From NCBI RefSeq assembly GCF_046105845.1, contig NZ_CP151004.1: a stretch of 64,000 nt of DNA; one strand, given 5' to 3'. Shown in pieces: positions 51,652 to 56,629 of the stretch. The position numbers and the translations under genes were made by a program. How positions within the stretch are numbered: position 1 is the stretch's first letter; each line of letters opens with the position of its first letter. Source of the stretch: Escherichia coli (GTDB lineage: Bacteria; Pseudomonadota; Gammaproteobacteria; Enterobacterales; Enterobacteriaceae). The notes under the pieces were generated by a model. That model ran no database searches. It saw only the letters and a program-made list of their open reading frames with translations, and was not told where the DNA came from.

Positions 51652-54600
51652 TTATTCCGGGCGCGGCTTCAGCGGGAAGCGGCGGCGCACCAGCACAAAG
51701 AACAGCGGCACGAAGTAAATAGCCAGAATAGTGGCCGAAATCATCCCGCCCATTACGCCAGTACCCACCGCATGCTGACCACCGGAACCGGCACCCGTGC
51801 TGGTTGCCATTGGCAATACGCCGAAGATAAATGCCAGCGAGGTCATCAGAATCGGGCGTAAACGCTGACGGCAGGCGTGGAGCGTCGCTTCAAACAGGTC
51901 GTGGCCTTTTTGGTTCATCTCGTTAGCAAACTCGACGATCAGGATGGCGTTTTTCGCCGATAAACCAATGACCGTTAACAGGCCCACCTGGAAGTAAACG
52001 TCGTTTTCCAGCCCGCGCATCCAGGTTGCCAGCAGCGCGCCGATAACCCCCAGCGGCACGACCAGCATTACCGAGAACGGCACCGACCAGCTTTCATACA
52101 GCGCCGCCAGACACAGGAATACCACCAGCAAGGAAATGGCGTACAGCGCCGGAGCCTGCGCGCCGGAAAGCCGCTCCTGATACGACATCGCCGTCCACTC
52201 CAGACCAAAGCCGTTTGGCAGCTGCTTCACTAACGATTCCATAATATCCATCGCCGTACCGGTACTGACCCCCGGTGCGGCTTCCCCGACAATCTCTACC
52301 GCAGAATAACCGTTATAGCGTTCCAGACGCGGCGAGCCTGTCTCCCAGCGTGAGGTCGCGAAAGCAGAGAAGGGCACCATGCCGCCATCTTTATTTCGGA
52401 CATACCAGAGATTGATGTCATCTGGCAGCATGCGATATGGCGCAGCTGCCTGCACATAGACTTTCTTCACGCGACCGCGATCCATAAAGTCATTCACATA
52501 GCTCGAACCCCAGGCGGTTTGCAGCGTGTCGTTAATATCGTCGATAGCAACGCCCAGCGCCTGAGCTTTACGCTGGTCGATATCGATCTGCAACTGCGGA
52601 CTGTCATCGAGGCCGTTATGGCGCACACGGGTTAGCTCCGGGTTTTCCGCCGCCAGCGCCAGCAACTGGTTACGTGCTGCCATCAGCGCATCGTGACCTG
52701 CCCCAGCGTGGTCCTGCAACTCCATATCAAAACCTGCAGAACTGCCAAGACCGCTAATTGCTGGCGGGCTGCTGGCGATAACGCGAGCTTCTTTAATCTT
52801 GTTAAACGCCTTCGTTGCACGCTCGATAATGGCAAACGAGGTGCCGGTCTTACTGTCGCGTTCGCTCCAGTCTTTCAGGCGGATAAACATTCGCGCCACG
52901 TTTTGCCCGTTACCCCCAGGGCCAGAACCAACGGTGGCAAACACCGACATGATGTTGTCTTTTTCATGGGTGAAGTAATATTTCTCGATTTGCTCAACGA
53001 CTTTCAGGGTCTGTTGTTGGGTTGAACCGCTGGGCAACTGTACCGAGGTAGTAAACATGCCACGGTCTTCAAGTGGCAAGAACGACGTCGGCAAACGCAG
53101 GAACAGGAACACCATGCCGCCAAGCAGCAGGACATAAATCACAATCCAGCGCAGGCTACGGTGGAGAATTTTCGCCACCCCTTTTTCGTAGCGTTCGGCG
53201 TTGCGGTTAAACATCTGGTTAAACCAGGCAAAAAAGCCTTTTTGCCCGTGATGCTCACCCTTTTTCAGTGGCTTAAGTAGCGTGGCACACAGAGCCGGAG
53301 TGAGGATCATCGCTACCAGTACTGACAGCACCATCGCCGCAACAATGGTAATAGAGAACTGGCGATAGATGGCACCGGTGGTGCCGCCGAAGAAGGCCAT
53401 TGGTACAAATACCGCCGAAAGCACCATCGCAATCCCGACCAGTGCCCCCTGGATCTGCCCCATCGATTTACGTGTGGCTTCGCGAGGAGTGAGTCCTTCC
53501 TCACTCATAATACGTTCGACGTTTTCCACCACCACGATGGCGTCATCCACCAGCAGACCGATCGCCAGCACCATCGCGAACATGGTTAAGGTGTTGACGC
53601 TGTAACCGAAGGCATAAAGTACGGAGAAGGTTCCCATCAACACCACCGGCACGGCAATAGTGGGTATCAGCGTGGCGCGGAAGTTTTGCAGGAACAGATA
53701 CATAACGAGGAAAACCAGAGCGATAGCTTCCAGCAGCGTTTTCACCACGTCTTCAATGGAGGCTTTAACAAACGAGGTGGTTTCATACGCCACCTTGTAT
53801 TCCAGTCCATGCGGGAAATACTGCGCCAGCTCGTCAAGACGATTGAGCACCAGCTCCGCTGTCGCCATTTCGTTCGCGCCGGAGGCCAGTTTTACCCCCA
53901 ACCCGGAGGCTGGCTTACCATTGAAGCGGCTAAGATAATCGTATTTCTCCGCCCCCATTTCGACGGTGGCGACATCGCCCAGCCTTACCTCTGAGCCGTC
54001 CTGATTCACCCGCAAGGTGATATCGCGGAACTGTTCTGGTGTTTGCAGCAGTGACTGGGCGTTAATGGTGGCGTTGAGCGCCTGCTTATCGACGGAAGGT
54101 GTACCACCAAGTTGCCCAACCGCAATCTGCGCGTTCTGTGACTCAATGGCATCAGTGACATCTTTAGCCGTCATCTGGAAACTGTTGAGTTTCGCCGGGT
54201 CCAGCCAGATACGCATGGAATATTGCGAACCATAGGCATCGATATCCCCGACGCCATTCACGCGGCTTAACGGATCCTGAATATTACTGGCAACGTAATC
54301 GGCAATATCCTGTTTATCCATCGAACCATCGGTAGAGACGAAGGCAATGGTCAGAATATTGGTATCGCCGGTTTTACGCACCGTCACGCCCTGATTTTGC
54401 ACCGCCTGCGGTAACTTTCGCATGGCTGATTGCAGCTGGTTTTGTACTTGCTGCACGGCTTCGTCCGGATCGGTGCCTGCTTTAAAACTTAAAGTGACAG
54501 ATGCCTGGCCGGTGCCACTGCTCTGAGACGACATATACATCAAATTATCGAGGCCGGTCATATTTTGCTCGATAACCTGGGTCACGGTGTTTTCCAGCGT

Positions 54601-54765
54601 CTGGGCCGATGCGCCGGGATAGTTAGCGGTCACTCGCACATTCGGTGGCGCGAGATCGGGGTATTGTTCAACGGGCAATGAAAAAATCGCCAGGGTCCCT
54701 GTCAGACACAACAGGATTGCCAGCACCCAGGCAAAAATGGGGCGATCAATAAAGAAATTCGCCAT
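51652..54765 (-). CDS. acrD: RND aminoglycoside/multidrug efflux pump AcrD
   Basis: 1037 aa; [19 protein letters not shown]; 12-TM RND architecture. Confidence 0.95.
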
Positions 54766-54835
54766 TAAAAGAGGACCTCGTGTTTCTGCGTATCGTTGTA
54801 GGCTTGACTTGCTTCACTGTAGCGGCAAGGTACGA

Positions 54836-54853
54836 GCCAATCGTGGAGAAAAA
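54836..54853 (-). promoter_or_regulatory. BaeR-box upstream of acrD
   Basis: Minus-strand TTTTTCTCCACGATTGGC, 17/18 match to recalled BaeR consensus TTTTTCTCCATDATTGGC; about 70-90 bp upstream of acrD ATG. Confidence 0.5.
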
Positions 54854-54928
54854 AAGGAGTTAATGTAAATTATCATGCCCTTTTATACTGAACTTTAAGG
54901 GCCAGTATTCTTTGGTCAGTCGGAGGCA

Positions 54929-56629
54929 TTACATCAGCTGACTTTCCTCACCCTCCGCGGAGCGAAAGCTAATACTCACTAACGTGCCGCCGCCGGAAGG
55001 TTGTGAAAAAGTCAGCGTCCCACCCAGCCGTTCCGCGCGCTCGCGCATGATATTCAGGCCATAATGACCTTCGGGTTCTTTCGGTTCACCGATGCCAATT
55101 CCGTTATCACGGATATAGACCGTGTGATTGCCGTCCGGCGCGGTGACGCAACTGACGGCGATTTCGCTGGCGTTGGCGTGCTTCATCGCATTCAGCACCG
55201 CTTCGCGAATAATTTGCAACAAATGCACCTGCATTTGCGCATCCAGCGCCAGGGTTGGCAGACGGCAGTCGAGGGTCAGTTTGGCGCTGGTTTGATTTTG
55301 TAACGTATCCAGCATTTCCCTCAACGCGGAGGGGAGATCTGCCTGCTGCAGCGTCAGGCGGAAAGTAGTCAACAGCTCGCGTAACTGCCGATAAGCATCA
55401 TTCAACGCTTGGGAAAAATCGGCCATGATACTTTGTGCGGTGGCGTTATCTTCCGGTATCGAACGCTTCAGTAACGTCAACTGGATACGTAAGTAAGAAA
55501 GTACCTGAGCCAGCGAGTCGTGCAATTCGCGGGCGATGGTCGCACGTTCTTCCATCAACAGTAACTGCTGAAAATGCTTCTGCGCCTGATTAAAGTACAA
55601 ACCGCGTCCCAGCATCGACGAAACGCTGTTAAGCAGCGGTTCTGATGATGAAACGTGACTATTTTGCCAGTGCAGTTCGCCGTAAACCGTCTCTTGCATT
55701 GTCACCGGTAAAATCTGCATCGGCAATTCCGGGTTTGGTTGCCCTTCGCTAATCCGCCAGTTTTCACCGACATTTAACTCCAGATATTCAGCCGCTTCGT
55801 TGTCGCGAACAATCTGCAAAATATGGCGGAAACAATGCACATCAATCTGGCTGGTGTTCAGTGCCTGCGAACACTGATACAACACCTCCAGGCGACGCTT
55901 GGCCTCGTGGAGGTCGCGGGTCTTTTCTTCTACTGACGCCTCCAGCGAACGGTACAATTTATGCAGCTCGCTCGACATCTGGTTAAAGGTTTTGGCAAGC
56001 AGGCCAAGCTCATTCGGCAGGCTGGTATCCAGCGGCGGCGAGTCGAACTGCCCGTGTTCAATACGCTGACTGGCGGTAACCAGCTGATTCAGCGGGGCAA
56101 CCACCTGATGGCGTATGCGGCGCAAAGTAAAAAAGACCAGCGTGAAAATACCGATGCCGCCAGCCAGGGAAATCGCCACCACCAGCAGCATTTTGCGTTC
56201 AGCGTAGTGCTGTAAAGCCAGTACGAACAGGTCTATCTGATTAACATAATTATTAATATTGGCCTGATACCACGGTAAATCGCCCTTGCTGAGCCGATTA
56301 TTCATCTCCAGCCAGTTGGCATTCAGATGCGCGTAGCGGGTTTTTACTGCCTCTGGCACATACCAGACGTTGAGATTGGTTAATACCGGTGAATGCAGTG
56401 CCTGCTGAAATAACTGCCGATGTGCATTGAGTTGTGGACTGCCACTTTGCAAGTCGTAGCCCAGGCGGTAACTCTGCATACGCAGCGATCCGGCAATATT
56501 GATAGCCTCAGCGTCGCGCAAACTGCTCGCCAGAGTTAGCAGAGCGATACCCGTGGAAAGAATCGACAGCAGCACAATGTAAAAAAAGGCCCGGGCCAGA
56601 CTGGCCGAGACGGGTCGTTTAACAATCAC
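54929..56629 (-). CDS. narQ: Nitrate/nitrite sensor histidine kinase NarQ (GTG start)
   Basis: 566 aa; HAMP, H-box HDSLAQ, ATPase motifs. Confidence 0.93.
   Translation of the reverse strand: MIVKRPVSASLARAFFYIVLLSILSTGIALLTLASSLRDAEAINIAGSLRMQSYRLGYDLQSGSPQLNAHRQLFQQALHSPVLTNLNVWYVPEAVKTRYAHLNANWLEMNNRLSKGDLPWYQANINNYVNQIDLFVLALQHYAERKMLLVVAISLAGGIGIFTLVFFTLRRIRHQVVAPLNQLVTASQRIEHGQFDSPPLDTSLPNELGLLAKTFNQMSSELHKLYRSLEASVEEKTRDLHEAKRRLEVLYQCSQALNTSQIDVHCFRHILQIVRDNEAAEYLELNVGENWRISEGQPNPELPMQILPVTMQETVYGELHWQNSHVSSSEPLLNSVSSMLGRGLYFNQAQKHFQQLLLMEERATIARELHDSLAQVLSYLRIQLTLLKRSIPEDNATAQSIMADFSQALNDAYRQLRELLTTFRLTLQQADLPSALREMLDTLQNQTSAKLTLDCRLPTLALDAQMQVHLLQIIREAVLNAMKHANASEIAVSCVTAPDGNHTVYIRDNGIGIGEPKEPEGHYGLNIMRERAERLGGTLTFSQPSGGGTLVSISFRSAEGEESQLM

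Follow-up and report, generated by a model that had tools for sequence, protein, structure and literature searches.

The 163-nt spacer between narQ and acrD (nt 54766–54928) in the 64-kb Escherichia coli window (the whole stretch of DNA that was analysed) carries an 18-bp element, TTTTTCTCCACGATTGGC (nt 54836–54853, minus strand), which is very probably the BaeR operator of the acrD promoter, and through which binding of phospho-BaeR would activate acrD under envelope stress. Judged by its sequence, the element is already known, being the same site as the BaeR box of acrD in strain K-12, now found in another E. coli genome. What appears new, to a modest degree, is the comparative support from about 79 loci with AcrD orthologues, which is independent of the consensus score.

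Position of the BaeR box in the narQ–acrD spacer

The initial annotation described a near-consensus BaeR box on the minus strand at this position, and the letters read exactly as it gave them (GCCAATCGTGGAGAAAAA on the plus strand). The consensus it used, TTTTTCTCCATDATTGGC, is the one printed in PMC3915751 and PMC3799227, both quoting Nishino et al. 2005, and its score of 17 out of 18 was reproduced, the sole mismatch being a C for T at position 11 (the G at position 12 fits the D of the consensus). A motif scan returned this site as the single match to the consensus in the whole window, even when up to three mismatches were allowed. Its assignment to the acrD promoter also holds, as the box lies within the narQ–acrD spacer on the acrD-coding strand, 75 nt 3' of the narQ stop codon (nt 54929–54931) and 70 nt 5' of the acrD ATG (nt 54765). 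The regulated target, acrD (nt 51652–54765, minus strand), was taken from the ORF list; it encodes an RND permease of 1037 aa, and an identical RefSeq sequence is annotated as AcrD. The upstream neighbour on the same strand (nt 54929–56629) is narQ, according to the RefSeq annotation of an identical sequence.

The 1.1-kb segment around the box shows 100% identity to several complete E. coli genomes, with exact matches that include canine strain 746 (NZ_CP023353.1) and strains SCU-109 and MS14384, and 5424 of 5426 complete E. coli genomes contain the narQ–acrD segment. Because just 29 of 5425 E. coli records reach at least 99% identity over nt 54300–55400 (most fall between 95 and 99%), the window is, on sequence grounds, read as belonging to a minority lineage of the species, in which the acrD promoter is nonetheless unchanged.

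No terminator-like hairpin was detected between the narQ stop codon and the box (0 sites in a promoter and terminator scan of nt 54600–55100), and the narQ-proximal part of the spacer (nt 54854–54928 region) is no more stably folded than its shuffled counterparts (z = −0.94). With no significant hairpin, the possibility that the conserved block described below is a narQ terminator was rejected. Transcriptional read-through from narQ into acrD may be conceivable from the sequence.

Origin of the consensus and the boxes of K-12

The promoters of three core BaeR targets of K-12 (acrD, mdtA and spy) were scanned with the 18-mer. The acrD box of K-12 (NC_000913.3, nt 2587502–2587519) is TTTTTCTCCACGATTGGC, identical to the element in the window and likewise 70 nt from the ATG, while the mdtA and spy boxes read TTTTTCTCCCTTATTGGC and TTTTTCTCCATAATTGGC, respectively. 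The published consensus is the exact column-wise majority of these three boxes, and the D at its position 12 is the union (G, T, A) of the bases that they carry there. The score of 17 out of 18 is therefore not independent evidence; on comparison of the sequences it is circular, since the site in the window is identical to one of the three boxes from which the motif can be rebuilt. We infer from the same comparison that the consensus of Nishino 2005 was derived from the mdtA, spy and acrD boxes.

Between K-12 and the window, the 110 nt running from 5' of the box to the ATG, the strand and the distance to the ATG are all the same; the two spacers differ by four substitutions, all of them farther upstream between narQ and acrD and none within the element. 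The mdtA and spy boxes, which belong to core members of the BaeR regulon according to the literature, have in common with the acrD box the string TTTTTCTCC...ATTGGC and an orientation toward the gene, so that 15 of the 18 positions are identical in all three. The difference lies in the three central bases, which are ACG in acrD but CTT and ATA in the mdtA and spy boxes. A TAnnnT hexamer 12–14 nt 3' of the 18-mer is common to the three promoters, whereas the offset of the upstream repeat varies (10 bp in mdtA, 11 bp in acrD and 22 bp in spy). In spy, a TACACT hexamer follows the BaeR box at the acrD-like distance of 14 nt, and the same region also contains a stronger-looking TTGACG-N16-TAATCT pair, with a CpxR-like CTAAAGTCAGTAAAG in its spacer. 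The ycaC gene is cited as having a fourth BaeR site, but the K-12 ycaC–ycaD spacer holds no good match to the 18-mer, the best having 7 mismatches, and it was left out of the comparison.

Conservation across AcrD orthologues

Eighty loci with AcrD orthologues (82–99% identity, well above any paralogue) were compared, one genome per species, with acrD beginning at nt 2501 of each locus. When 300 nt upstream of each gene were scanned, a box-like sequence was found 68–74 nt from the ATG in nearly all loci. The alignment of upstream DNA comprises 76 distinct regions, i.e. those of 75 orthologues plus the window, and displays a single sharp island of conservation from about nt 54876 to 54838. This is followed by about nine poorly kept positions, then by a second block, CCGCTACAGTG, and finally by the Shine-Dalgarno region, where GAGG (nt 54776–54779, minus strand) forms a conserved block just 5' of the acrD ATG.

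Within the 18-mer the positions T54851–G54842 and T54840–T54839 are kept in 73–76 of the 76 regions, with A or T at 54841, while at the two 5' T residues (54853 and 54852) A and T are freely interchanged. At the other end of the 18-mer, the 3' GGC (nt 54836–54838) is weakly kept between genera (G in 64, G in 32 and C in 47 of the 76 regions), an observation that appears mildly new. All three founder sites of E. coli (acrD, mdtA and spy) carry this same GGC. For use outside E. coli, the published 18-mer thus probably over-specifies the 3' end.

In 70 of the 80 loci, across Enterobacteriaceae and Erwinia, the 200 nt preceding acrD contain the core of the box, TTCTCCACGWTT. Elsewhere in the 635 kb searched on both strands this core has only two more copies, of which one is a promoter copy displaced by an insertion. 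Four loci that at first gave poor matches (L041, L044, L084 and L070, the last from Shimwellia) were found on inspection to carry the core or a one-base variant of it. Within E. coli, 5342 of 5425 records match a 30-mer around the box at 100% identity. This pattern, in which the core is kept while its flanks drift, points to strong purifying selection on the box at a fixed position in the promoter.

Anatomy of the acrD promoter

Placed in register on the minus strand, the promoter reads ATAATTTACATTA, (T/A)CTCCTTTTTT, TCTCCACGATT and GGC, followed by 14 nt and the hexamer TACAGT. Two 11-bp units are evident, each beginning with TCTCC and ending in an A/T-rich stretch. The promoter-proximal unit, TCTCCACGATT (nt 54839–54849), is the best-conserved core of the box. 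The promoter-distal unit, ACTCCTTTTTT (nt 54850–54860; TCTCCTTTTTT in most other species), repeats it directly, one helical turn upstream: [A/T]CTCC at nt 54860–54856 and TCTCC at nt 54849–54845, both of them conserved, are offset by 11 bp. For the distal unit the counts are 73 of 76 regions for C54859, 76 for T54858, 62 for C54857 and 76 for C54856, and by its sequence it would represent a second BaeR half-site. At nt 54860 typical E. coli, including K-12 and the window, has A and hence ACTCC (5376 of 5425 records match a 37-mer with this A at 100% identity), while TCTCC, taken as the ancestral form, occurs in one E. coli-labelled representative (L005), E. whittamii, E. albertii, Citrobacter and Salmonella. 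The T-to-A change in E. coli may weaken the BaeR half-site.

The hexamer TACAGT (nt 54816–54821, minus strand) conforms to a TAnAnT pattern whose T, A, A and T are kept in 75–76 of the 76 regions, and it is the likely −10 element. It lies exactly 17 nt 3' of the core in 74 of 75 loci, even though the distance to the ATG may be 65, 94, 142 or 201 nt. As the 17-nt spacing is fixed while the distance to the ATG varies, the box is coupled to the hexamer and not to the start codon. The scan of nt 54600–55100 gave 0 sites for a sigma-70 consensus promoter, which is how an activator-dependent promoter would be expected to look, and there is no −35-like hexamer 16–18 nt from TACAGT. TTGGCT was considered as a −35 hexamer and rejected, as the spacer to TACAGT would be just 13 nt. 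From the position of the −10-like hexamer alone (a start about 7 nt after it), transcription is predicted to begin at nt 54809, within 2 nt to either side, on the minus strand; a literature search found no experimentally mapped acrD start. With a start near nt 54809 the 18-mer would extend from about −44 to −27, and the TCTCC blocks would lie at −51 to −47 and −40 to −36.

Just upstream of the repeats is a near-invariant TTTACA (nt 54864–54869, minus strand), conserved in 76 of 76 regions from T54867 to A54864, in 75 at T54868 and in 69 at T54869. On the plus strand it contains GTAAA (nt 54865–54869), a single pentamer of the CpxR type. A canonical CpxR box (GTAAA-N5-GTAAA) was rejected here, since only the one pentamer is present and the sequences 10 bp to either side are AGGAG and ATGCC. 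We infer a role for CpxR at TTTACA from this pentamer.

Taken together, the layout, with its pair of TCTCC units, TAnAnT at a fixed distance of 17 nt and TTTACA next to the repeats, appears to be pan-enterobacterial and mildly new. It is possible, though we regard it as a tentative reading, that the functional unit is a composite of about 40 bp, consisting of TTTACA, 4 nt, the two 11-bp TCTCC repeats, 17 nt and TAnAnT, and that it is fixed across the Enterobacteriaceae. If so, the 18-mer would span just one and a half half-sites and would over-specify the unconserved 3' GGC, and the fact that CpxR boosts acrD only with BaeR would be accounted for by the single CpxR-type pentamer next to the distal half-site. 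Such a composite would imply cooperative or mixed occupancy by two OmpR-family regulators, and the T-to-A change in the distal unit of E. coli could then explain weak occupancy in ChIP-exo (see below).

Comparison with other operators

Members of the OmpR/PhoB family bind tandem direct repeats as head-to-tail dimers once phosphorylated, often replacing the −35 element. BaeR matches PF00072 (Response_reg) and PF00486 (Trans_reg_C) and, having a receiver and a Trans_reg_C winged-helix domain, is therefore a regulator of this family, with the same winged helix as the PhoB type. Operators of the pho box type resemble the acrD site by analogy, in that they have two direct repeats with an 11-bp period, each with a conserved 5' block and an A/T-rich tail, and are located upstream of a −10 element where the −35 hexamer is missing. 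The half-site itself is different, as the TCTCC of acrD does not correspond to the half-sites of pho box-type operators. By this analogy, the acrD site would act by a pho box-type, class II-like mechanism. DNA-bound structures exist for relatives of BaeR (KdpE, 4KNY; PmrA/BasR, 4S04), whereas BaeR itself is represented by a protein-only entry (4B09), no BaeR–DNA structure being present among the PDB entries of BaeR and its relatives.

A further comparison is with the orthologous promoter of Erwinia amylovora, a fragment of which is shifted by BaeR in EMSA (Pletzer and Weingart 2014, PMC3915751). The Erwinia box is about 140–166 nt from the ATG, as against 70 in the window. In E. mallotivora (locus L082, about nt 2340–2360) TTTCTCCACGATT is kept and is followed, after 17 nt, by TAAAGT. 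The box published for E. amylovora, TTCTTCACGATTACTGGC, fits the core better when shifted by 3 nt (TTCTTCACGATT versus TTCTCCACGATT, 11 of 12 positions); this register correction is our own reading of the sequence and would be mildly new.

Direct or indirect control of acrD

The link between the box and envelope stress proposed in the initial annotation is supported, as the box is the K-12 acrD box and acrD is documented to be induced through BaeSR by indole, ethanol, metals and tungstate. Of the four BaeR sites reported in E. coli, one lies upstream of acrD, according to Bury-Mone 2009 (PMC2731931), and PMC10052836 describes phospho-BaeR as a direct regulator of acrD. A lux fusion to the acrD promoter (−274 to +11) was responsive to indole only with BaeS and BaeR supplied (PMC4780735). 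In the supplement of PMC7657598, acrD has a log2 change of −2.9 (about 8-fold down) in a K-12 baeR deletion under 5% ethanol, compared with −0.2 unstressed, and of −1.9 in a cpxR deletion; the effect of CpxR on acrD and mdt is strictly BaeR-dependent (PMC2731931). Erwinia BaeR, besides shifting the acrD promoter fragment, induces acrD 3.8-fold (PMC3915751). The literature search found no BaeR SELEX study and no footprint specific to acrD.

When BaeR was mapped by ChIP-exo in K-12 under 5% ethanol (Choudhary et al. 2020), peaks appeared at spy and mdtA but acrD gave none, and the authors concluded that BaeR regulates acrD indirectly. We place little weight on this negative result, because the same study has acrD strongly BaeR-dependent, because the acrD box agrees at 15 of 18 positions with the boxes of two bound promoters, because strong purifying selection acts on the box, whose place in the promoter is fixed, and because low occupancy can give a negative ChIP. 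As a speculation, the ACTCC form of the distal unit in E. coli might contribute to the missing peak.

Were the control of acrD by BaeR indeed indirect, the conserved block would serve as operator for a different regulator that itself needs BaeR for its activity, be it CpxR or one as yet unknown. The missing peak at a BaeR-dependent gene, the fall of acrD in the cpxR deletion and the GTAAA pentamer within the conserved block all fit such an arrangement. Nevertheless we consider it improbable, as the box shares 15 of its 18 positions with the spy and mdtA boxes, both bound by BaeR in ChIP-exo, published reports, second-hand for in-vitro binding in E. coli, place BaeR on the acrD promoter and are matched by the Erwinia EMSA shift, the canonical pair of CpxR pentamers is absent, and the reported action of CpxR at acrD is itself strictly dependent on BaeR. 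Given the deep conservation and the fixed promoter geometry, direct control by BaeR is therefore favoured over indirect control. It is less probable still that the T-rich block is core-promoter DNA, i.e. an UP-like element or an extended substitute for the −35 hexamer, kept for contact with RNA polymerase. The fixed 17 nt to the −10-like hexamer, the T-rich composition and the lack of a −35 hexamer would all be compatible with this, but it is the C and G residues of TCTCCACG, and not the T-tract, that are invariant (54853 and 54852 may each be A or T), two further promoters under BaeR control contain the same 9-mer and 6-mer, and expression without stress is low and BaeR-independent.

That the match might be a functionless chance resemblance is the least probable reading, and nothing more than the general frequency of T-rich intergenic DNA speaks for it. 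From base composition, an analytic estimate gives 2.4e-4 matches per window and 0.018 per 4.9-Mb genome, and none of 100 dinucleotide-preserving shuffles contained a match with at most one mismatch, so that a chance match is excluded; the site is, in addition, conserved in about 79 species.

On the preferred reading of a direct BaeR operator, envelope stress (indole, ethanol, Zn/Cu, tungstate or flavonoids) would lead BaeS to phosphorylate BaeR. The true operator would consist of the two tandem 11-bp units, (T/A)CTCCTTTTTT and TCTCCACGATT, to which a BaeR dimer would bind head-to-tail, and it would overlap the missing −35 region of the promoter whose putative −10 element is TACAGT. There BaeR would act as a PhoB-type class II activator, recruiting sigma-70 RNA polymerase to an otherwise weak acrD promoter, possibly assisted by CpxR at the invariant TTTACA just 5' of the repeats, and AcrD would then pump together with AcrA and TolC. 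The baeR and baeSR genes lie outside the window; given that 5422 of 5426 complete E. coli genomes carry baeR, this genome almost certainly does as well.

Biological significance

That BaeSR regulates acrD is textbook knowledge in both E. coli and Salmonella. The AcrD pump expels aminoglycosides, some beta-lactams, bile salts and novobiocin, and it adds tolerance to metals and tungstate, and the box ties the sensing of envelope stress by BaeSR, aided by CpxAR, to induction of this pump. Finding the box in another E. coli genome is ordinary and adds nothing new. The value added by the comparison is modest and lies in three features fixed in about 79 species: the core, a second half-site and the distance to the −10-like hexamer. 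This comparative picture supports direct control of acrD by BaeR, as against the indirect regulation called by one ChIP-exo study, and it suggests a better-defined BaeR motif for the prediction of regulons in other enterobacteria.
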